Source: Treponema sp. UBA3870 (GTDB lineage Bacteria > Spirochaetota > Spirochaetia > Treponematales > Treponemataceae). From it: 64,000 bases of DNA. The notes under the pieces are model-generated. The model was not told the DNA's origin, ran no database searches, and saw only the letters and a program-made list of their open reading frames with translations. Positions 32,824 through 45,530 of the stretch are shown piece by piece (position 1 is the stretch's first letter; every line of letters starts with the position of its first letter). Position numbers and translations under genes: made by a program. The stretch is from contig DGGQ01000107.1 of NCBI GenBank assembly GCA_002392275.1, positions 3,781-67,780 of the forward strand, in the 5' to 3' direction.

Positions 32824-32897
32824 GCTGATTCGCTCAATAAAACTCAATAAAAGGCTAAAACTTGAGTTTTCTAGAACTTTTTTTGTCTATTAGTCCG

Positions 32898-33090
32898 AAT
32901 TTCGAGTTTTCTGTCACGAGGCTTGAACACAGTACTGTCATGCTGAACGTGGTTGCTTACAACCCAATTCAGAATCTATACCCACTGCAACGTTGGAAGA
33001 GATTCCGAAACGAGTTCGGAATGACGGGCTTTGTAAAAACTCGAATTTGAACCTACTAAAAAATTCCGGGACAAGCCCTAGGATGACATG
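32898..33090. repeat. REP-like palindromic element cluster
   Basis: TTCGAGTTTT...AAAACTCGAA outer stem enclosing GTCATGCTGAAC...TTCGGAATGAC; further GGGACAAGCCC..GGATGAC half element. Confidence 0.55.
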
Positions 33091-33123: not shown

Positions 33124-33158
33124 AATCCCCCGTCTCAAAATAAATGAGATGGGGGATT
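33124..33158 (-). terminator. Intrinsic terminator of the left Msp-like gene
   Basis: AATCCCCCATCTCA/TGAGACGGGGGATT stem followed by a T-run on the minus strand. Confidence 0.8.
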
Positions 33159-33184: not shown

Positions 33185-34651
33185 TTACAGAGCAATCTTG
33201 CATGTCAGGTTGATTGTACCAATCTGTCCGTTGTCCTTGTTTCCGCTAAGAAGGTTGCGTGATGTCCAGTCAAGAGAGAATGTTGTGTTGTTGATGAGTC
33301 CAGAAACATCAGCTCCAACCTTTACGTTCATAAGAGTGTTGTCAGCGTTGGTTCCAACGATGTCACTATTGAATTTACCGTTGTCACCATAGCACTTGTC
33401 CTTAAGGTTTGGCAATGTTGCACCATTTGCAAAGCGCATACCAGCCTGTGGTGTGATTGTGATGGCATCGGTTGCCTTCAATGCATACTTAACTCCACCA
33501 GCGACTCCGAATCCAACTTTAGAATTAGGAGCTGTCGGTGCGTTGATTTCTGCAAGCACACCCGCTGTAAGTCCAGGAATGATGTCTCCTGTGTAGAGGG
33601 AAGGAACAATCTGAATTACAGGGTCCTTTGTGAGACTTGTAATTTTTGCAGCAACACCAACTCCTGGCGTAACCTTCTTTGCATTGTCATTGTCAAGATA
33701 GTAGACTCCCGCGTTTGCATCAACTGTGGCACCCCATCCAAGCAGGACTCCAGCTCCAAGTTCCATTGTTGGGTCGGCATTGTCAATCTTTGCCATTGTG
33801 AACGCCACGCTTGGCTGCAGGTAGAACTTATCTCCCATGCTCAGCTTGTAGCTGGCATTTGCACCAAGTCCAAGAGCCTTTGCATCAAACTGATAGTCAA
33901 CACCGACACCAATTGAGAGTCCTGGAACAAACTTCAATGTTGTCTCTGCCGCAAGACCGTAGTCGTTAGCGTAAGGCGTTGAAGATGTTGATGTACTAGT
34001 AGTAGTAGAAGTATCAATTAGCACAAGACTATTATCAGTATCCCATGCTGCAGTATACTCCTCAGATGTTCCACTCTTTACATCCGTGTATTCATCAGTT
34101 GTTCCAACGCGATGTCCCCATGTATAAGTTGTTTTTTGGGTGGCGGTTTTGGTTTCTACTGGCTTTGAACGGAAATCAACTGCTACATCGAAAAGACTGC
34201 TGTTATATCCGGCAACAATACCCTGTGTGTGGCTTGGATCCGCAACATCGGCAACAGTCAAGGCGTTGTCGTGGTCTGCAGAACGAATGGCGTTCACTAA
34301 CTTGTACTTTCCGTAAACTGTGTCGCCAGACTTGATTCCAACATAGACAGGTCCGAAATGGAGCTGAGCCTTCTCTACAGAAGCGGTTCCATCCTTAATT
34401 GCACCGTTCTCAGCATACAGAGACTTACCTTTTAGCTCGATCTCTGCCCAGATTCCTTCACCTTCAGTTTTCTTGGTTCCCTCGTTGGTAAAGTTTACCT
34501 TGAGCTTTGCTTCCTCAGTATTCTTGAAGCCGGTCTTGCCAGTGTCAAGATCTACGCCCCAAGTAACTGATGCGTTTCCAGAAAGCTCTGCAACCTTCAA
34601 GTCCGCTACAGGCTCATCTGCAAATGTAAGTGCAGCCGCCGCGGCTGCCAT
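33185..34651 (-). CDS. Msp/Tpr-family major outer sheath protein, silent 5'-incomplete cassette (copy A)
   Basis: LSGNASVTWGVDLDTGKTGFKN N-terminal block; paralog of 40413-41786; intact frame but signal peptide begins at MAAAAAALTFA with no basic n-region and no RBS. Confidence 0.8.
   Translation of the reverse strand: MAAAAAALTFADEPVADLKVAELSGNASVTWGVDLDTGKTGFKNTEEAKLKVNFTNEGTKKTEGEGIWAEIELKGKSLYAENGAIKDGTASVEKAQLHFGPVYVGIKSGDTVYGKYKLVNAIRSADHDNALTVADVADPSHTQGIVAGYNSSLFDVAVDFRSKPVETKTATQKTTYTWGHRVGTTDEYTDVKSGTSEEYTAAWDTDNSLVLIDTSTTTSTSTSSTPYANDYGLAAETTLKFVPGLSIGVGVDYQFDAKALGLGANASYKLSMGDKFYLQPSVAFTMAKIDNADPTMELGAGVLLGWGATVDANAGVYYLDNDNAKKVTPGVGVAAKITSLTKDPVIQIVPSLYTGDIIPGLTAGVLAEINAPTAPNSKVGFGVAGGVKYALKATDAITITPQAGMRFANGATLPNLKDKCYGDNGKFNSDIVGTNADNTLMNVKVGADVSGLINNTTFSLDWTSRNLLSGNKDNGQIGTINLTCKIAL
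34631..34651 (-). repeat. Left inverted repeat, candidate recombination site (ATGGCAGCCGCGGCGGCTGCA)
   Basis: Exact reverse complement of 40440-40460; internal dyad GCAGCCGC-G-GCGGCTGC. Confidence 0.9.
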
Positions 34652-34795
34652 ATTACAATACAGGTGTATTGGGTGATTGCGATTTATGGGCGTTGGTCGC
34701 AAGCTATGCTTGCTAACGAGTTTTTACTTGCTCGCGAAGGTTCGCATTTTTCGCTTTGCGAAAAACCGTAAAAACTCGCGAATACTATGAGTGAT

Positions 34796-34953
34796 GCCAG
34801 AAATTGACGTAGGCAATTTCTGGGTAGTGAGGGACCTAAGGCCCGAACGCCGGGAAGACTTTCCCCTCAAAAATAAGATGCGCCAGAAATTGACGCAGAC
34901 AGTTTCTGGGTAGTGAGGGACTTAAGGCCCGAACGTCGGGAAGACTTTCCCCT
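34796..34953. repeat. Tandem pair of ~72-bp hairpin-rich REP-like units
   Basis: 34796-34867 and 34882-34953 nearly identical; stems CCAGAAATTG/CAATTTCTGG and GGGAAG/TTTCCC. Confidence 0.85.
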
Positions 34954-34961
34954 TCAGCATT

Positions 34962-36116
34962 TTAAATCTCCTGTTCCAGAGTCCTTAGTTGGGAGGCGGC
35001 GATGGGGTCTTTTGGGTCGATTTCAAGGACGGTCATAAAATACTTTCGGGCCTCGCTTTCGTTTCCCATTTTTAAAAAAAGATAACCCAGGTTGCTTATG
35101 ATTTTTGTGTTGTCGGGGTCCATGTTCAATGCTTCAACCAGACTTTCCTTTGCGCCGGCAAAATCACCGGTCTCCATCTGGCAGATTGCAAGTTCGTTCA
35201 GGGTGTCCGAATTCTCGTCTCCACCTTCGCACTCCCTTGCCTTTTCAAAAGCCTGTTTGGCATCGGCAAAGCGTTCTAGACGACGCAGACCCCATCCAAG
35301 CAAAAACCATGCGTTCCAGACTGCCGGATTGTTCTGAAGAAAAATGCGCACCTCGTTGATTCCCTTTTCCTCCTGCCCGGACGAAATCAGTTCGTATGCG
35401 TTGTGGTAATGCTCGTCCTCCAGATTGCGTGCGGAAATCTTGTTCAAAAAATCCTGTGCGGTTTCACGCTTTTCTTCTCCACGTGGTCCAAGCTCTTCTT
35501 CGCTGGCATCGGTGGTTAGTGCAAGAAAACTTTCAAATGCCCACTTTGCCTCGGAAAAATTGCGCTTCTTCATGTAAAAATATCCGGCGTTGAAAAATGC
35601 GTCGGGGATTTCGGGTTCGCTGTTCATTGCGTCCTTGTAGTAGGTCAGGGCAAAATCATCGTAGGCATCGGCATCTTCGTGGAGATTGTTTTTTCTGTAG
35701 CTGTCAGCCGCCTGGTCAAAAAACAGTGCCATGTTCAGGATTATGTTTTTGTTTTCCGGGTCCAAGCCGTGCAGAGCGGACCACATTTCTTCCGCCAAAT
35801 CCCAGTCCTCGTTGCGGGTCTTTAGGATTGCCGCCTCCTGTAGCTCCACCTTGATGTTCGGCCGGATATTTTCAATCAACTGTCTATAATATGGAAGATT
35901 TTCGTTGTCTCGGTCATAGGCAAGAACGGTCAGTATGCCTGCGAGTATTTGTTCCTGAGAAAGTTCCGAAAGATTTAGGGAGCCAGTCTCGTCTCCATCC
36001 TTTTTTTGGACGGGAATCATGATTGACGGGTCGAGCTTGAAATTTGGGTCCGCAAATTTGTAGCCGTCGGGAAGTTTTATAAAATAGACCGATTCTAGGT
36101 GGTTTGCTGGGTTCAT
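34962..36116 (-). CDS. Tetratricopeptide-repeat protein
   Basis: Multiple TPR patterns (AFFNAGYFY, AWFLLGW, IISNLGYLF..ALNMDP). Confidence 0.88.
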   Translation of the reverse strand: MNPANHLESVYFIKLPDGYKFADPNFKLDPSIMIPVQKKDGDETGSLNLSELSQEQILAGILTVLAYDRDNENLPYYRQLIENIRPNIKVELQEAAILKTRNEDWDLAEEMWSALHGLDPENKNIILNMALFFDQAADSYRKNNLHEDADAYDDFALTYYKDAMNSEPEIPDAFFNAGYFYMKKRNFSEAKWAFESFLALTTDASEEELGPRGEEKRETAQDFLNKISARNLEDEHYHNAYELISSGQEEKGINEVRIFLQNNPAVWNAWFLLGWGLRRLERFADAKQAFEKARECEGGDENSDTLNELAICQMETGDFAGAKESLVEALNMDPDNTKIISNLGYLFLKMGNESEARKYFMTVLEIDPKDPIAASQLRTLEQEI

Positions 36117-37105
36117 GCTTTTCCTTCCGCTGGACTTGCCGGGTTTGCTGGATTTTGCTGCTGGGACGGTTGCAGTTTGGGCGCATTCTGCTGGGCCTTT
36201 TGAATGTTCTGCTGTATAATCTGCGCGCGCTGCTCCTTGATTTTCTGCTCGACAAGTGCCCGTTGTTTTTCAATCTCTTCCTGTCTCGCCTGATTTTCAA
36301 GCTCGTTTTTACGAAGGGAAGAAAGATAGCCGTTGATTCGGAGCTTGTATGCCATGGAGATTGAATCCTCGTTGAATCTTATGCCGGCTGCGTAGATGTC
36401 GTTTCGTCCGTCAGCGGGGGTTGCTTTCAGAATGATTCCCTTCAGAGAGATTGTCTCATCGGGATCAAGAAACTGTAGGTTAAGCTCTATCTCCTTGTTC
36501 ACAAGAAACTTTGCCAACCCCAAAACCATGACCTTTGCGCCACCAAAAGAAAGGTCCCTCAGGATGCACCGTCTTGGAACGCCCTGGATTGTGATGACGG
36601 TTTCCTCTCCCGGAATGCCAAGTCTGCGGCATGTGTCCTTATTTAATAGAATTCTTTCGTCAAAACGTCGGATGGCATTTTCGTTTGCGTCAATAAGGTG
36701 GCCCACCATCTCGATAAAGGCATCCGGTGGACGCTGGTTGAAAACTATGGTAACAATTGCAAGGTCCGTGCTGTTTGCGTAGGACTCCATCCCGCTGATT
36801 TTGCCCGCAACAAAGAAACTGAGCTGTTCGCCAGACGGACGGTTGAAGAAAAACCGAATGTTTACAGCTCCCGACATTTTTTCCACGAGCTGCTGGAAAA
36901 TTCCGCCTCTTGTTCCAACGATGACCTTGACCTGCTGAAAGGACGTGGAGTTGATGATGCAGGGCCACTGAAGTCCGTTGCACTTAAGAAATATTTGCTT
37001 CGGATCCATGCCAAAGATTTTGATTACATCCTTGGTAAATTTTATCTCGGTCGTCCTGTAATAGTCATAATAATGATTCAACTGTTGAGCGGTAACTATA
37101 GCCAT
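36113..37105 (-). CDS. PilZ-domain c-di-GMP receptor (spirochaete PlzA-like)
   Basis: RRFDERI (RxxxR) and DLSFGG (DxSxxG) motifs. Confidence 0.85.
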   Translation of the reverse strand: MAIVTAQQLNHYYDYYRTTEIKFTKDVIKIFGMDPKQIFLKCNGLQWPCIINSTSFQQVKVIVGTRGGIFQQLVEKMSGAVNIRFFFNRPSGEQLSFFVAGKISGMESYANSTDLAIVTIVFNQRPPDAFIEMVGHLIDANENAIRRFDERILLNKDTCRRLGIPGEETVITIQGVPRRCILRDLSFGGAKVMVLGLAKFLVNKEIELNLQFLDPDETISLKGIILKATPADGRNDIYAAGIRFNEDSISMAYKLRINGYLSSLRKNELENQARQEEIEKQRALVEQKIKEQRAQIIQQNIQKAQQNAPKLQPSQQQNPANPASPAEGKA

Positions 37106-37171
37106 ATAGGCATTTTAGTTTATAAAGCATCAATTGTAAAGTAGAAAAATCTGGCATAACAGCGGGTTATT

Positions 37172-38011
37172 TTATTTGGGGCTTGAGTTGTCCTTCTCCA
37201 GCTCAAAAAGAACATCTTCCAAGGGTGCTCCCATTTTTTCGGCGGCGGTCTTTGGGTTTACACCAAAATCATTTACAAGAACCAGCGCATTCTCGACGGC
37301 CTTTCTGTGTTCGCCATTTTCAAACCCAGCTTCAAGACCTGCCTCATAGTCGTAGGTCCTCTGTCTTTCCCATTCCATGTACTGCATCCTCCATTGTGTG
37401 TTCTTCTTCGCGTCATCGGCAAGCTTCGCAATCCTGTCGGTGAAATCCGAGGAGCTTTCGTTTGTCAGTATGAATTTTAGAAACGACCGCTGCTCCCCGT
37501 CAAGAAGTTTATCACAGTTTCTAGCAATGAAAAAGTATTTGTGTGTCCTGTCGCCCAAAGGAAGGGTGTTGTCCTGCCTGCAGAGGTTCTCGAATGTGTA
37601 TACCGGCAGCCCCCGAGAGAAGACATCGCCTATGCAGATGAAAATAATGTAAGACTCCTTCAGCTCGGAGTATTTCTGTCCGGCGCCCAGAGTGTCAATA
37701 TCTATCACGCTCTGGTAGTAGCGCGCCCGCTCCGGAAGCTCCTTGGTGTCCACCGCCTGCATCTCGATGTCGAAGGCCCTGGAGCTGTTCCTTGCGTACA
37801 CATCAAGGCGTATGCACTTGCTTCCGTAGTCAACCATGATTTCGTCCTCCGAGTGCGTCTCTATTCGCTCGATGTCCATTCCGAGCAGAATCTCCAGAAG
37901 CCTCCGGCAGATTTCGGGATTGTTGTGCATGACCTTGTAGAACAGGAAGTTGTTTGCGAGTGTGGCCCGCTCCCATTTTTCTTCCGGAGTCAGTTTTTCT
38001 TTTGTTTCCAT
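37172..38011 (-). CDS. Rpn-family PD-(D/E)XK nuclease / putative transposase, copy 1
   Basis: NNFLFYKVM, IRLDVY, FDIEMQ, RARYYQS, YIIFIC. Confidence 0.9.
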   Translation of the reverse strand: METKEKLTPEEKWERATLANNFLFYKVMHNNPEICRRLLEILLGMDIERIETHSEDEIMVDYGSKCIRLDVYARNSSRAFDIEMQAVDTKELPERARYYQSVIDIDTLGAGQKYSELKESYIIFICIGDVFSRGLPVYTFENLCRQDNTLPLGDRTHKYFFIARNCDKLLDGEQRSFLKFILTNESSSDFTDRIAKLADDAKKNTQWRMQYMEWERQRTYDYEAGLEAGFENGEHRKAVENALVLVNDFGVNPKTAAEKMGAPLEDVLFELEKDNSSPK

Positions 38012-38244
38012 GCTATATATATATTCCATGAAATTCAGAAATGTAAAAAAATTGCAAAATTTTTCTATAAAATATGACTTTCTCGCTTCTCGCAATCCAT
38101 TGGTACAAGCCACAAGCCAAAATCTTGCAACAAAATCTTGACTAAATCAGTTTTTTCTACGACACTTTAGGTTGTATGGGGAATCTCTGGAGGAAATCTT
38201 TTTGGGAGTCCCATATACATATCTTTATTCGATGGGAGAAGAAT

Positions 38245-38940
38245 ATGAAGAAAATTTTAGCACTCGCCGCGGTGGCTGTAACTGCCGTAGCTTTGGCATC
38301 TGCCGATCCACTTTTCGTTGGTCACGCATACTTTGGTGTTGGTCTGGGTTCTGCTGTACAGGATTGGAACAAAGATAACAGTACCCGTACAGATTTAGGC
38401 AATAACTACAAATGGAATTTCGGCTCAAATCTGGACTTCGGTGCGGGAGTTGCAATCAACATTCCGTTCGGCGACTATTTCGGTTTCCAGCCGGGCGTGG
38501 ATTTCTACGTGAACAATGTCGGTTATCATTATGAGACTAGCAACGGTTACGACAAAAGAGACCAGACTTTCACATACCTTTCACTGGATATTCCGCTTTT
38601 GTTTACGGCAAAAATCAACAAATGGAATTTTGCGATAGGTCCTTATGTGTCCATTCCTCTTGGCGATGTAACTTCTACACGCAATATTATTTCATCCAGC
38701 TCTTTAACTTCTTACAAGTACTCGCATTCATGGGGTTCCATCGGTGCTCTGGTGGGCGTAGGATATGAGATGAGGATAGGTCTCGGCAGACTCGTGTTTG
38801 GCGGACGCTATTTCCACGATTTCATGCCTATTGATGTTGAGTACAAGGACTACATCAACAGTTGGCCAGATGGTACGCTGAGTCTCTGGCGTGGTGCATT
38901 GGAAATCGATGTTGCCTACAAGATTCCGCTCTCATTCTAA
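38245..38940 (+). CDS. Outer-membrane beta-barrel protein
   Basis: Signal peptide, YLSLDIPLL and GPYVSIPL strands, terminal Phe. Confidence 0.75.
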   Translation: MKKILALAAVAVTAVALASADPLFVGHAYFGVGLGSAVQDWNKDNSTRTDLGNNYKWNFGSNLDFGAGVAINIPFGDYFGFQPGVDFYVNNVGYHYETSNGYDKRDQTFTYLSLDIPLLFTAKINKWNFAIGPYVSIPLGDVTSTRNIISSSSLTSYKYSHSWGSIGALVGVGYEMRIGLGRLVFGGRYFHDFMPIDVEYKDYINSWPDGTLSLWRGALEIDVAYKIPLSF

Positions 38941-39014
38941 TCTGACGGAAACATTCGGCTAGACGAAAACCGCATCTTTTATAGGGTGCGGTTTTTTTAT
39001 GGATTTGTGCAGTT

Positions 39015-39233
39015 TTAGGTTCTGTTCTCCAGCTCAAAAAGAACGTCCTCCAGGGGGGCTCCCATTTTTTCGGCGGCGGTCTTTGGGTTTACACCAAAAT
39101 CATTTACAAGAACCAACGCATTCTCGACGGCCTTTCTGTGTTCGCCATTTTCAAATCCGTTTTCAAATCCGTTTTCAAATCCAGCATTAAGTCCGGCCTC
39201 ATAGTCATAGGTCCTCTGTCTTTCCCATTCCAT
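39015..39233 (-). CDS. Stand-alone Rpn C-terminal module (putative small antitoxin)
   Basis: GGAGG RBS 9 nt before ATG; near-identical to the C-termini of both full Rpn copies. Confidence 0.6.
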   Translation of the reverse strand: MEWERQRTYDYEAGLNAGFENGFENGFENGEHRKAVENALVLVNDFGVNPKTAAEKMGAPLEDVLFELENRT

Positions 39234-39296
39234 GTACTGCATCCTCCATTGTGTGTCCTTCTTCTGCAAATTAGAAAAATCTGGCATAACAGCGGG

Positions 39297-40130
39297 TTAT
39301 TTTATTTGTTTTTTTGCATTGTCCTTCTCCAGCTCAAAAAGGACGTCCTCCAGGGGTGCTCCCATTTTTTCGGCGGCGGTCCCTGGGATGACACCAAAAT
39401 CATTTACAAGAACCAGCGCAGCTTCGACGGCCTTTCTGTGTTCGCCATTTTCAAGACCTGCCTCATAGTCGTAGGTCCTCTGTCTTTCCCATTCCATGTA
39501 CTGCATCCTCCATTGTGTGTTCTTCTTCGCGTCGTCGGCAAGTTTCGCAATCCTGTCCGTGAAATCCGAGGAGCTTTCGTTTGTCAGTATGAATTTTAGA
39601 AACGACCGCTGCTCCCCGTCAAGAAGTTTATCACAGTTTCTGGCAATGAAAAAGTATTTGTGCGTCCTGTCGCCCAGAGGAAGGGTGTTGTCCTGCCTGC
39701 AGAGGTTCTCGAATGTGTATACCGGCAGCCCCCGAGAGAAGACATCGCCTATGCAGATGAAAATAATGTAAGACTCCTTCAGCTCGGAGTATTTCTGCCC
39801 GGCGCCCAGGGTGTCAACATCTATCACGCTCTGGTAGTAGCGCGCCCGCTCCGGAAGCTCCTTGGTGTCCACCGCCTGAATCTCTATGTCGAAGGCCCTG
39901 GAGCTGTTCCTTGCGTACACATCAAGGCGTATGCACTTGCTTCCGTAGTCAACCATGATTTCGTCCTCCGAGTGCGTCTCTATTCGCTCGATGTCCATTC
40001 CGAGCAGAATCTCCAGAAGCCGCCGGCAGATTTCGGGATTGTTGTGCATGACCTTGTAGAACAGGAAGTTGTTTGCGAGTGTGGCCCGCTCCCATTTTTC
40101 TTCCGGTGTCAGTTTTTCTTTTGTTTCCAT
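39297..40130 (-). CDS. Rpn-family PD-(D/E)XK nuclease / putative transposase, copy 2
   Basis: Near-identical to 37172-38011 except the C-terminus. Confidence 0.9.
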   Translation of the reverse strand: METKEKLTPEEKWERATLANNFLFYKVMHNNPEICRRLLEILLGMDIERIETHSEDEIMVDYGSKCIRLDVYARNSSRAFDIEIQAVDTKELPERARYYQSVIDVDTLGAGQKYSELKESYIIFICIGDVFSRGLPVYTFENLCRQDNTLPLGDRTHKYFFIARNCDKLLDGEQRSFLKFILTNESSSDFTDRIAKLADDAKKNTQWRMQYMEWERQRTYDYEAGLENGEHRKAVEAALVLVNDFGVIPGTAAEKMGAPLEDVLFELEKDNAKKQIK

Positions 40131-40332
40131 GCTATATATATATGCCATGGAATTCAGAAATGTAAAAAAATTGCGCTTTTTTAATGCTTGATTTTTTCTC
40201 AAAACATGTCGAATTTAAAAACACAAGGTTTGATGGGCTTTGTCCAGAGTTAAAATAATGCCAAAGGAGGGGCAATAGAGAAAATTTTGGTTACAAATTT
40301 CCATTAAACATAACAAAATATTAAAAAAATGT

Positions 40333-40361
40333 TTGACGGCACAAAAAAAATGTGCTATTGT
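40333..40361 (+). promoter_or_regulatory. Sigma70 promoter of the Msp expression site
   Basis: TTGACG-17 nt-TATTGT with extended TG; AGGAGG RBS at 40400-40405. Confidence 0.65.
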
Positions 40362-40412
40362 TAGATTATAAAGTGCTTATAAAAGCATTTAAGAAAAATA
40401 GGAGGAATTCTT

Positions 40413-41786
40413 ATGAAAAAGATTATTGCTATAACAGCAATGGCAGCCGCGGCGGCTGCAATTTCATTTGCGGCTGAACCAGCGGTGAACCAGAGCGTAA
40501 GCCTTTCTGGCGATGCTTCAGTGACATGGGGTGTTGACCTTGATACAGGCAAGACTGGTTTCAAGAATGAGGCGAATGCAACCCTCGAAGTTGTGTTCAC
40601 CGGTGAAGGAACCAAGGAAACAACTGGTGAAGGCATCTGGGCAGAGATTCAGGCAAAGGGAACTGCCCTGTCTGTGAAGGACACACTTACAACTACCCCA
40701 ACTTTGACGAATGGTGCTGCATCTATTGAAAAGGCAAAGCTTCACTTCGGACCTGTTTACCTTGGAATTACAACTGGCGACACAGTGCTTGGAGAGTTTA
40801 ACGGTGCAAATGCTGTGAACTCATCAAAGCTTGGCGTAAGCAATACATATGATGATGCAGAGGGCCACAAGCAGGGTATCGTCGCAGGATTCAGCAATGA
40901 TATGTTTGCTATCGATGTAGACTTCCGCTCACATCCAATTGGAGGAAATTACTACACCAACGACTACGGTGTGGCTGGAGAGGCAACACTGAAGTTCATC
41001 CCTGGTCTGGAAATCAAGGCAGGTGCAGACTATCAGATTAGGTACAACGATGCCGAGTCAAACAAGCTCGGAGTTGGAGCCAGCGAGAAGTACACACTTG
41101 CACTTGGCGACAAGTTCAAGCTCATCGAGGGTGTCGGATTCAACATGGGAAAGGTCGTCACCAATTCTGACGCTCCTGTAATGAACCTTGCCGCAGGTGT
41201 TGTATTTGCATGGGGAGACGAGGCAGACGCAAACGCCGGAGTTCCTTACCTTGATGGAGACTATGCAAAGAAGGTAACACCTGGAGTTGGTGTCGCCGCC
41301 GCAATCAACAAAATAACAAACGATGACAGAACTATCGTCATTCAGCCATCATTCTACAGCGGAGACATCATCCCGAACCTGAAGGTTGGTGTTTTGGGAC
41401 AGATTGGCATTTCAACAACAAGTGGAAACGACGCTGTTTTCGGAGTTGCCGGTGGACTTAAGTATGACCTGAAGGCAACAGATGCCCTCACAATCAGCCC
41501 TTATGCCGGTGCTCGCTTTGTCAAGAATGCCGCTTGGGCAACTACTGCAAATCTGTTCGACGACACATTCACAACCGAGACTACTGACAACGGAAACAAG
41601 AAGGATTTGCAGGGAGCTGGAAACAACAAGCTGAACGTAAAGGTTGGAGCTGATGTTTCTGGACTCATCAACAACACAACATTCAGTGCTTGGTGGCAGT
41701 CACGCAACCTCCTGAATGAGGATGCAGACAAGAAGACCAACGGACAGGTTGGTACAATCAACCTCAAGTGCAAGATTGCTCTGTAA
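40413..41786 (+). CDS. Msp/Tpr-family major outer sheath protein, complete expression-site copy (copy B)
   Basis: Full signal peptide MKKIIAITAMAAAAAAISFA, SLSGDASVTWGVDLD block, beta-rich body ending CKIAL. Confidence 0.85.
   Translation: MKKIIAITAMAAAAAAISFAAEPAVNQSVSLSGDASVTWGVDLDTGKTGFKNEANATLEVVFTGEGTKETTGEGIWAEIQAKGTALSVKDTLTTTPTLTNGAASIEKAKLHFGPVYLGITTGDTVLGEFNGANAVNSSKLGVSNTYDDAEGHKQGIVAGFSNDMFAIDVDFRSHPIGGNYYTNDYGVAGEATLKFIPGLEIKAGADYQIRYNDAESNKLGVGASEKYTLALGDKFKLIEGVGFNMGKVVTNSDAPVMNLAAGVVFAWGDEADANAGVPYLDGDYAKKVTPGVGVAAAINKITNDDRTIVIQPSFYSGDIIPNLKVGVLGQIGISTTSGNDAVFGVAGGLKYDLKATDALTISPYAGARFVKNAAWATTANLFDDTFTTETTDNGNKKDLQGAGNNKLNVKVGADVSGLINNTTFSAWWQSRNLLNEDADKKTNGQVGTINLKCKIAL
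40440..40460 (+). repeat. Right inverted repeat, candidate recombination site
   Basis: ATGGCAGCCGCGGCGGCTGCA, codons 10-16 of the signal peptide. Confidence 0.9.
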
Positions 41787-41812
41787 TCTTAACTAGTTCA
41801 GTCTGTTGACTA

Positions 41813-41850
41813 AATGCCCTCGGACCAAACGGTTCGGGGGTGTTTTTTTT
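41813..41850 (+). terminator. Intrinsic terminator of the right Msp-like gene
   Basis: ATGCCCTCGGACC-aaac-GGTTCGGGGGTGT followed by a T-run. Confidence 0.75.
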
Positions 41851-43018
41851 AGCAGATTCCCAAAATCGGGGCGAAAATTTTTGAGGAAGTTTGGGCAAGT
41901 TCCATCAAGGTCTGCTCCGACTGGTGTGCCGCGTAGTGCTCTAGCATTGCAATCGACTTGTGGCCCGTCGCCAGCTGCAATTTTCTTAAATCCACACTGT
42001 CAGCCATGGTTGTAGAAAAAAAATGCCTCCAGCAGTGGAATGTAATTTTTTCCCCATCCTTTATGTTCAATTTTTTTACAATCTCGTGCAGCTCCCTGTT
42101 CCATTTTGAGTAGGAGCTTGGTTTTTCTTTTGTCTGACCCCAGAACAAAAAATTTGATGGTCGCGGTCCAAACGGATTTTTTTCCGCCTGTTTTTTTATC
42201 AGCGACAAAAGTTTTTGGTCCACGATTATTTCCCGCTGGCATCCATTTTTGGGAGACTTAAGGCCATCCCTTCTTGTCCAGTTGTGCCGGACAAAAATTC
42301 TGTCACGACCAATATCCCTCAGCTGCAAAGCCTGGACCTCTCCAATCCTCATTCCAGTGCAAATGGAAATCAAGTGCGCGAGCCGGATTGATTCATCATT
42401 CCATTTTTTTGAGAAAATCTGCTCCACCTCCGACATTGTTGGAACCACACGTTTTTCTGGAACAACGTGGCACCAGATGATTCCGCTAAAACAGTCATTA
42501 GCTGTCAGTTTGTTGTGGTATGCCCATTTGAGAGCGAGAGTTGCGCAACGGACAATCTGGTTCACAGTCTCAGGTCTAAGTTTTCTTTTTACAAAAATCT
42601 GATTTCCGAGACCATCTTTTTTTGCGGTTCCAACTTTTTGTGCCGTGGTCGCGAGTGACAAAAGTTTTTTTTTGATTTCAAACACAGTGATTTCTCCAAG
42701 AGGAATTTTTCCGTGGGTCGGAATCCAGTATGCCCTTGCCCGTTTCAGCATTATATCCGCGTAACGCCTGTGGGCCGACTGTCCGACTATTTTCTTTTCA
42801 GCAAAATATGGGGACCTGTCAAAATCCCAAAAGCGTTCCAAAAAATGTCCAAACGTTTCGCTCTGTGGACTGTCCGCAAATGTCGCCGACACAATATATT
42901 TTTTCATCTGCAGCGCCCGTACAATTTTTTTTACACCGTCCTCACTGATTTCCGTTGTCAAAATTTTTTCGTAGATTTCATCTTCAATTTCTTTTGAATC
43001 CACCCGTTCCATTTTCAT
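41849..43018 (-). CDS. Tyrosine recombinase / site-specific integrase
   Basis: TGMRIGE (R), PKNG (K), FHCWRH (HxxR), GHKSIAMLEHY (H, Y) all intact; GAGG RBS before ATG 43018. Confidence 0.92.
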   Translation of the reverse strand: MKMERVDSKEIEDEIYEKILTTEISEDGVKKIVRALQMKKYIVSATFADSPQSETFGHFLERFWDFDRSPYFAEKKIVGQSAHRRYADIMLKRARAYWIPTHGKIPLGEITVFEIKKKLLSLATTAQKVGTAKKDGLGNQIFVKRKLRPETVNQIVRCATLALKWAYHNKLTANDCFSGIIWCHVVPEKRVVPTMSEVEQIFSKKWNDESIRLAHLISICTGMRIGEVQALQLRDIGRDRIFVRHNWTRRDGLKSPKNGCQREIIVDQKLLSLIKKQAEKNPFGPRPSNFLFWGQTKEKPSSYSKWNRELHEIVKKLNIKDGEKITFHCWRHFFSTTMADSVDLRKLQLATGHKSIAMLEHYAAHQSEQTLMELAQTSSKIFAPILGIC

Positions 43019-43982: not shown

Positions 43983-44630
43983 TTACTTTTGTTTTACCTT
44001 CGCCCGTTCGCGCACAAAATATTCAAATCCTTTTTTGTCAAGAAGATTTAAAAATCCCTGCACATCGTTTGTCGCTATGTCTTTTATCACAACCCTTGTT
44101 ATGTTTCCTGCTGTCTGGTATGCAAGGTATTTGTTGATTCCGGCGGCCTGTAATTTTTTGACAAAAGCTTCTGCATTTTTTCGCACCGAGAATGCGCCAA
44201 GCTGAATGTCCCAGGTCTTGCTTTTGTTTTCCTGTTTCAAATATGGAGATGAGGAACTGTTTTGAATTTTCGCATCGATTATAGTGATTTTGACTTTCGC
44301 CGTCCCGGATTTTATCATGTCAAGCTTTTCTGCAGCTGCCTTTGACAAATCAATTTCACGGCCAGCAATAAATGGTCCCCTGTCATTGATTCGGACTGTT
44401 ACGTTTTTTCCATTTGAAAGATTTGTGACTACAACCTTCGTGTTGAATGGAAGTGTTTTGTGGGCAGCTGTAAGAGCGTACATGTTGAACGTCTCACCGT
44501 TGGATGTTTTTCTTCCGTGAAACTTGTCCGCATAGTAGGAAGCGACGGCCTCCGACTTGTAAACATAGTCTGCAAAAACTGGAACCACCGAAATCAGCAG
44601 GGCTGCGACCAAAAGGATTCTTCTTTTCAT
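43983..44630 (-). CDS. rlpA: RlpA-family septal lytic transglycosylase with SPOR domain
   Basis: [36 protein letters not shown]; IQLGAF SPOR motif. Confidence 0.93.
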
Positions 44631-44807
44631 ATTGTCCTCTTTTTTTTAAAAATTTACAACCATAGATTCCCCCTCAAATTTTTGGTCGAAAAAAAAGGGA
44701 CCCGCCAAATGCAGATCCCCTTCTCGCACTTTTATCAATCCATCTGGAAAAGCCCCACTTGCAATTCCCAGACAGTTATTATTAAATTAGCAAAGCATTT
44801 TCAAAAA

Positions 44808-45530
44808 CTATTGCTCAATAGAAAGACTCGCAACCTCCACGCCGGTCTCCGTTACTGAACCAAGTTTTCTCTGTCTGACCAAGTAATGATCAAAACCATG
44901 CTGCTTCAACGCATCAACAATATAATCCAAATCGGACGCGGCAACATCGCGGATTACAACTCTGGTGATTCCGTCCTCGGATTGGTATGCAATATTTTTG
45001 AATCCCTGACTGTTGAGTTTGTCCGCAAGAATTTTTGCGTTTGAAAAATCGGAGTACGCTCCCAGCTGAATGTCGTAATGCTTTTCCTCCTGATGGTAGA
45101 TTTTGGATTCCTCCTCGTAAGGTGTTTCCACAACTCCACTGACATCGGTCGTTGGACCATTGTTTGTTCCCCACTGGATTATCTCCATGGAAACTCTTGC
45201 GGTCCCGGCTTTTAGCATACCCAAATCAGATGCGGCGGCTTTTGAAACATCAATTTCGCGACCCGGTGCGCTAGGTCCCCTGTCATTGATTCTTACAACA
45301 ACAGACTTTGAGGTGACAAGGCTTGTCACTTTGACCAGAGTATTGAAAGGCAATGTATTGTGGGCCGCAGTGTAGTCGTTCATATTGAAGATTTCACCGC
45401 TGGCAGTTTTATTGCCGTTCAGTTCCTCACCATAATAAGAGGCGATGACATTTGTTTTGTACAGTTCCTCCGCAGAAGCAAAGGATGCAATGGCCATAAG
45501 TGCCGTCAAAAAAATACCATGTACTTTCAT
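44808..45530 (-). CDS. rlpA: RlpA-family lytic transglycosylase with SPOR domain (second paralog)
   Basis: [28 protein letters not shown]; IQLGAY. Confidence 0.92.
   Translation of the reverse strand: MKVHGIFLTALMAIASFASAEELYKTNVIASYYGEELNGNKTASGEIFNMNDYTAAHNTLPFNTLVKVTSLVTSKSVVVRINDRGPSAPGREIDVSKAAASDLGMLKAGTARVSMEIIQWGTNNGPTTDVSGVVETPYEEESKIYHQEEKHYDIQLGAYSDFSNAKILADKLNSQGFKNIAYQSEDGITRVVIRDVAASDLDYIVDALKQHGFDHYLVRQRKLGSVTETGVEVASLSIEQ

Follow-up and report, generated by a model that had tools for sequence, protein, structure and literature searches.

The 64,000-nucleotide stretch of Treponema sp. UBA3870 analysed here (the window) contains two genes for predicted porin-like outer-membrane barrels, copies A and B, which point away from each other, and a tyrosine recombinase gene adjoining copy B. 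The locus is likely to be part of a shufflon of the Vpma/Omp1 kind, here with a tyrosine recombinase that would invert DNA at a site lying within signal-peptide codons. One expression head, composed of a promoter, a ribosome-binding site (RBS) and the nine initial codons of a signal peptide, would have one short site in common with at least three predicted porin-like cassettes, and the adjacent recombinase would invert the DNA between oppositely oriented sites and bring a different cassette under the head. Inversion between sites a and b (5.8 kb) would lead to expression of A, and inversion between b and c (ca. 35 kb, carrying the recombinase gene along) to expression of a third copy, C. The crossover is predicted to occur in the 7-bp spacer of a YAGC-N7-GCTG core, while a slower homologous exchange between cassettes would generate mosaics and move bodies between slots. 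The system would serve to vary the surface, in all likelihood as a response to phage or for altering the specificity of the pore. An earlier note on this DNA had proposed a switch between A and B; the switch as such is supported, whereas the limitation to two copies is not, since the 21-bp site occurs a third time, in C, and at least three cassettes are present.

Architecture of the head, the cassettes and the shared site

Along the genome the layout is purD, A(−), head segment, B(+), recombinase(−), ca. 33 kb of further DNA and C(−). The relevant parts of the window are:

33124..33158 (−): terminator-like hairpin and T-run 3′ of copy A, read from the sequence and common to copy C
33185..34651 (−): cassette A, headless 488-aa predicted beta-barrel outer-membrane protein body
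33278..33330 (−): 53-bp perfect repeat, A copy near the 3′ end
34631..34651 (−): site a, 21 bp, core YAGC-CGCGGCG-GCTG, predicted crossover site
34652..34695 (−): silent-cassette flank, 44 bp, the same upstream of A and C, without RBS
34652..40439 (no strand): head segment of 5.8 kb bounded by sites a and b, predicted to be invertible
40333..40439 (+): expression head with promoter-like site (40333-40361), AGGAGG (40400-40405) and MKKIIAITA (40413-40439)
40413..41786 (+): head-joined cassette B, a predicted porin-like barrel of 457 aa
40440..40460 (+): site b of 21 bp, in a 32-bp identity with copy C
41632..41684 (+): 53-bp perfect repeat, B copy near the 3′ end
41812..41845 (+): hairpin resembling a terminator, located between B and the recombinase gene
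41849..43018 (−): tyrosine recombinase, 389 aa, predicted invertase, single-copy in the assembly

The 21-bp inverted repeat reported in the earlier note is perfect: positions 34631-34651 are the exact reverse complement of 40440-40460, and ca. 5e-4 such pairs are expected by chance in 64 kb. A 21-mer common to two paralogs does not in itself point to a recombination site, because A and B have a longer perfect repeat, a 53-bp block near their 3′ ends; the sharp 5′ cut, rather than the repeat itself, is the real signal. Both copies are open frames, 61% identical over the aligned columns, and their identity begins at the ATG of MAAAAAA (upstream 0 identical bases; 4/27 matches across the head region). 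Copy B possesses the promoter, AGGAGG and signal peptide already ascribed to it, the promoter being sigma-70-like (TTGACG-17-TATTGT), and the head is single-copy in the assembly. For the intact frame of A, no Shine-Dalgarno-like motif was found within 25 nt upstream, the promoter scan called none between A and the TPR gene, and a basic n-region is missing. The coding part of the head comprises 27 nt, so that a flip would fuse it in frame to A, as had been predicted. The hairpin 3′ of A, which lies within an 84-bp identity between A and C, is likely to be the terminator claimed for A; the terminator scan did not call it, probably because of its 9-nt loop.

In the assembly (2.26 Mb, 69% complete) there are exactly three copies of the 21-mer. 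Its third occurrence opens copy C, a headless 481-aa paralog (contig C46:9074-10519) whose 44 upstream bases are identical to the flank of A, without the PilZ-TPR operon; A, B and C are pairwise 61-67% identical. Copy C lies ca. 35 kb from the head/B locus. Contigs C6 and C46 of this genome overlap by 21 nt, and a 33.3-kb contig of the sister genome G247 (G247:C49) spans the distance from the B slot to the C slot, mapping to the end of C6 and the start of C46. The sites of A and C are both opposite in orientation to that of the head, as inversion requires.

Alignment of heads with silent copies across genomes revealed the common site core YAGC-N7-GCTG, whose arms are Ala codons of the signal-peptide h-region and whose 7-bp spacer is identical within a genome and different between lineages. 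Sites of tyrosine recombinases consist of inverted arms around a 6-8-bp spacer that must match between the partners. The stretch shared by head and silent copies begins at position +1 in G000, +2 in G016 and +6 in G097 and G009; the silent copies read TTG CCA GCC in G097 and G009 and start with TTG in G016, in all cases without ATG. The site motif is necessary at most and not sufficient, since ordinary single headed genes carry it. A genus-wide site pattern, which was over-specified and missed G000 itself, was left out of the counts; its single matches in G219, G010, G316 and G325 are ordinary headed genes, so that the MAA codon motif alone was rejected as a switch marker.

The recombinase is a member of the domain family PF00589 (E 1e-22) and keeps the six catalytic residues R224, K257, H328, R331, H353 and Y362, which are invariant in 30/30 aligned homologs; its description as catalytically intact is thereby borne out at the level of the sequence. 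On the basis of linkage and co-occurrence, it is the likely enzyme for inverting these sites, as its clade also sits between headed/headless pairs of other barrel families. A reading as an island integrase with att sites was ruled out, the repeats being inverted and placed inside barrel genes and the recombinase tracking the cassettes across loci.

The AlphaFold2 model of the barrel consists mostly of strands (mean predicted local distance difference test score 81.5), and its best structural matches are porins (Z 14.4, root-mean-square deviation 6.7, 282 aligned). Model and sequence together indicate a large beta-barrel with a cleavable signal peptide. The label 'Msp/Tpr' used in the earlier note found no counterpart in Pfam: neither A nor B has any match, MOSP_N (PF02707) and MOSP_C (PF02722) included. 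MOSP domains occur 0 times in the genome and in 0/39 more distant family members (E 0.01), and MOSP_C in 1/45 family members (E 0.0015). In the ESM Atlas, 22% of the members of the top cluster (score 0.97) have MOSP domains, and an Msp cluster reaches a score of 0.96, on a par with porin clusters. The barrel has no sequence match in the PDB, and no Msp structure is among the fold matches, which excludes nothing. The proteins can fairly be called 'Msp-like barrels' at best, membership of Msp/Tpr being unsupported by Pfam.

Distribution across the genus and alternative explanations

The survey covered 338 genomes of the genus, 23 of which contain a close recombinase (identity of 50% or more). 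Cassettes without the head, with the cut at the same codon, are seen at the DNA level in 16 of the 23 (G000, G247, G016, G091, G153, G076, G242, G275, G227, G134, G074, G154, G194, G079, G097 and G009); they belong to several dissimilar barrel families, and every silent frame that was examined is open and of full length. The head pattern matched 10/338 genomes, once each, and 9 of these 10 have a close recombinase. Where head and silent sites are linked on one contig (G227, G134, G074, G091, G097, G009), they are oppositely oriented. In G227, G134 and G074 the recombinase is located between the members of a convergent headed/headless pair of other barrel families, and G154 contains three headless copies beside a single headed one. 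In G213 (L059, C23) and G043 (L062, C23), which are without a close recombinase, there are convergent pairs of the same barrel family with both members headed; they offer a useful negative control. Profile A1 gave no match in G097, G009, G083, G243 and G224, in the first two because their cassettes belong to another family. Genome G097 harbours a compact version with three cassettes in the order silent, headed, 1.6-kb head segment with an Rpn gene, silent, which is the best candidate for bench work:

L276 (G097:C63:1-5350) and L278 (C66 end): G097 compact version

A lipoprotein-type head (MKKT...AAAA...GC) in G097 and G009 carries the same core with the spacer reversed (L260, G097:C23; L253, G009:C58 end; L256, G009:C60 start), and in G009 one headed and one headless version exist, both at contig ends. 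These lipoprotein-type heads possibly constitute a second switch.

The idea that inversion moves promoter, RBS and MKKIIAITA between barrels is supported by the same bodies occurring in headed and headless form. Of the 46 homologs that carry the MAAAAAA motif, 17 begin with the head and 29 at MAAAAAA. The pair P0122 and P0007 has the same body in headed and headless form (100% identical), P0123 and P0128 have the C-type body (97-98%) with a head, and an A-type body, 93% identical to A, is headed in P0016, which minus its head equals the body of G247 exactly. In the DNA contig L031 the head runs into an A-type start.

Segment orientation, which the earlier note had suggested comparing among relatives, is inverted at the sites between sister species. 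In the clade of G134 the head is found at one end of a 7-9-kb segment. The silent end of this segment precedes the cassette upstream of the MoxR operon in G194 and G079; G134 has the same segment orientation and has lost the cassette at the MoxR slot (L135:14275-14439, G134:C2). In G154 the head precedes the MoxR-slot cassette and the silent flank faces the opposite way; the segment was pieced together from two overlapping contigs each in G154 and G194. The two orientations, G154 versus G194/G079/G134, have their breakpoints at the sites. Downstream of the headed gene lies Rpn-recombinase in G134 and MoxR in G154, which differs from the fixed expression locus of the tprK/vmp type; the upstream context stays with the head and the downstream context changes. 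That the head segment faces opposite ways in sister species agrees with inversion, but not with copying into a fixed locus. Cassette number varies among these species, the MoxR-slot cassette being present in G194, G079 and G154 and missing in G134.

Switching might instead be real but proceed by homologous recombination of the RecA type or gene conversion, with the recombinase as a linked bystander, an explanation that we regard as improbable. Perfect repeats of 53, 59 and 84 bp exist near the 3′ ends of the cassettes, of which the 53-bp repeat is a possible substrate for homologous exchange, and the shared 5′ identity reaches 68-86 bp in some genomes. Mosaic A/B contigs were found in sequencing runs from other strains, where A/C-type 5′ parts sit on B-type bodies (X3, X10; likeness 88) and an A-type 3′ end is joined to the recombinase side (X15). 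Together with the placement of the A body in the recombinase-side slot of G247, the mosaics indicate a second process of homologous exchange among cassettes. However, the shared 5′ identity is 20-32 bp in several genomes, and in G091 and G016 a headless barrel of 359-363 aa shares only 20-23 bp with the headed gene and no detectable similarity to it beyond the signal peptide (hhalign probability 19%); such a length we judge too little for ordinary homologous exchange. Homology of the donors along the body holds for A/B/C and fails for the unrelated cassette of G091. Moreover, a change of the head's downstream neighbours under a constant upstream context is unexpected for fixed-locus copying, the recombinase clade accompanies different barrel families, and the site combines a constant palindromic core with a lineage-specific spacer. 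The arrangement found, a single expression unit and several silent genes with one short site, corresponds to a shufflon.

Less probable still is the view that the headless copies are static relics of old duplications, or parts of an inactive switch, and that the states represent fixed strain differences. Eight sequencing runs (X1, X2, X3, X10, X14, X15, X16 and X17) were examined as Logan contigs only, a form in which rare variants are dropped. In X14, X16 and X17 (two studies) a single RNA contig contains both head and B, and the two are wholly covered by RNA contigs, the depth of which cannot rank gene abundance; only head-B is seen in the DNA and RNA contigs of this strain, and differences in state are observed between assemblies and species and not within a clone. 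RNA contig cover is missing for the recombinase gene in X14 and X16 and likewise for its 3′ end (to 42300) in X17, which is uninformative. In G247, the equivalent of the head segment forms one contig (G247:C68) that ends at the 21-mer on both sides, and converging contigs share 87 terminal bases. We infer that the assembly word length exceeded 21 and that the sequence had two continuations at each end, for which co-existing strains could also account; these contig ends are suggestive of switching within the population. Against static relics stand the open, full-length silent frames with the same-codon cut in 16 genomes, the occurrence of a body identical over its length in both states, and the intact recombinase. 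Loose contig ends at 40457/40458 (X16/X17) were rejected as extra cassettes, one of them matching a headed gene of another species, G009. A metagenome scan returned 8 loci, mostly short.

It is hardly credible that A is an ordinary gene started at its own ATG, read through from the PilZ-TPR operon and equipped with a short signal peptide: the in-frame ATG, the position downstream of co-oriented genes and a 161-nt RNA contig on part of A in X14 (the only one to touch A among the pieces listed) are compatible with it, but RBS and basic n-region are missing, equivalent copies in G016, G097 and G009 are without ATG, and C has the same flank without that operon.

Several points weigh against the inversion shufflon. 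The placement of the A body next to the recombinase in G247 cannot be produced by 5′ inversion alone. No head-A or flank-B 5′ joint is present among the joints listed from the eight contig-only runs, which indicates neither presence nor absence of rare flips, and a head-C joint is indistinguishable there because B and C have 32 bp in common. The headed C-type proteins derive from 1.5-1.7-kb contigs and could be assembly chimeras, and headless protein records may be start mis-calls, so that the cases at the DNA level count most. Only 7/23 genomes have the recombinase adjoining a cassette, and it is found on another contig in G242, G275, G097, G009, G016, G091, G153 and G076. In a quick recombinase tree the cassette label, incomplete at that time, was not clustered beyond shuffles (62/500 as low). 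With the queries used, no cassette was found in 6/23 genomes, which are fragmented (61-85% complete); G117 has a headed copy only, and G068 (77% complete) contains the head and no recombinase match. Finally, the genomes are kin, and their counts are not independent tests.

The inversion shufflon may be part of a broader picture, in which a dedicated recombinase lineage uses palindromic Ala codons as crossover, the head acts as a universal, actively flipping plug for non-homologous porins over tens of kb, and in some species the reversed core represents a second, lipoprotein switch. We consider the chances of this extended proposal to be about even.

Passengers and neighbouring genes

The predicted invertible segment carries, between the silent flank and the head, the following passengers:

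34796..34953 (no strand): two 72-bp copies of a dispersed repeat resembling repetitive extragenic palindromic (REP) elements
34962..36116 (−): TPR protein
36113..37105 (−): PilZN3-PilZ protein, resembling PlzA below the cut-off
37172..38113 (−): Rpn-family nuclease/putative transposase, copy 1
38245..38940 (+): small outer-membrane protein (OMP) beta-barrel, PF13568, resembling TDE1717 below the cut-off
39297..40202 (−): Rpn-family nuclease/putative transposase, copy 2

REP-like dispersed repeats, present in many genome copies, flank cassette A (32880-33060 and 34680-34953). A promoter-like site of the PilZ/TPR genes (37112-37140) would read toward whichever cassette is silent. The two Rpn copies are near-identical and, together with a fragment at 39015-39287, flank the small OMP gene, the middle part of which varies among strains. 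Rpn-family genes are also found beside heads or cassettes in G091, G134, G154, G194, G079, G097, G213 and G158. Beyond the recombinase, two tandem genes at 43983-45530, presumably RlpA-like, have a 71-bp block in common. The runs matching the stretch are gut and sheep metagenomes.

Relation to known switching systems

If the proposal is true, the locus switches large outer-membrane barrels by inversion and has counterparts across a clade of commensal gut treponemes. The position of the site in signal-peptide codons would render silent copies untranslatable and unexportable until joined, and would allow unrelated barrels to share one head. The locus provides a testable recombinase-site pair and a candidate phage-receptor switch in a ruminant-type gut. 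It also implies a warning for annotation, since gene calling takes headless cassettes for ordinary genes and assemblies break at the sites.

A treponemal surface-protein inversion or shufflon was not found in the CC-licensed PMC and bioRxiv texts searched, although supplements of preprints, such as inverton catalogues, may contain loci of this type, and the matched passages of a 2025 review contain no such system (PMC11868660). The epigenetic hsdS invertons of Treponema denticola are programmed inversions fusing coding segments (PMC7672463), and a restriction-modification inversion is described for T. brennaborense (PMC5903667). According to the passages concerned, inversions of the hsdS type shuffle type I restriction specificity domains and not surface proteins, and the Treponema inversions found in print concern restriction genes only.

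In the vpma, vsp and vsa systems of Mycoplasma agalactiae, M. bovis as well as M. pulmonis, with the recombinases Xer1, Mbr and HvsR, site-specific rearrangements put silent surface-protein genes behind one promoter; the vpma sites share an identical 21-bp stretch, and a tyrosine recombinase is encoded nearby (PMC2268961). As far as the relevant passages describe them, these systems resemble the one proposed here in their silent surface genes, single expression unit and nearby tyrosine recombinase. In vpma, however, the sites are part of the 5′ untranslated region and every gene retains a start of its own according to the same passages, whereas the Treponema site lies inside signal-peptide codons. 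Unlike vpma, the Treponema silent copies are without RBS and n-region, the cargo consists of beta-barrels, and the cassettes are up to ca. 35 kb apart among housekeeping genes.

For Dichelobacter nodosus omp1, multiple site-specific inversions were proposed for several genes that encode forms of a major outer-membrane protein (PMC4196234). In the passages on it, omp1 is a gammaproteobacterial system of four linked genes of one protein; in contrast, the Treponema system belongs to a spirochete clade, appears to have a dedicated recombinase lineage and covers dissimilar barrel families.

One promoter or constant 5′ part moved by nested inversions from one variable surface-protein gene to another, as proposed here, is also the principle of Campylobacter fetus sap, Lactobacillus acidophilus slpA/slpB and the R64 pilV shufflon. 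The sap system uses long 5′ homology and RecA and has complete silent genes, and pilV swaps C-terminal tips. In Treponema the silent copies are without the head, the identity often amounts to 20-32 bp, and the switch would replace nearly the entire mature protein.

Surface variation in spirochetes is known from gene conversion, which in Treponema pallidum tprK and Borrelia vmp/vls proceeds from silent donors into a fixed expression locus. Surface variation from silent donors and mosaic cassettes are features in common with the present system. In contrast to tprK, vmp and vls, the Treponema head would move reciprocally to different slots and could be joined to non-homologous bodies.

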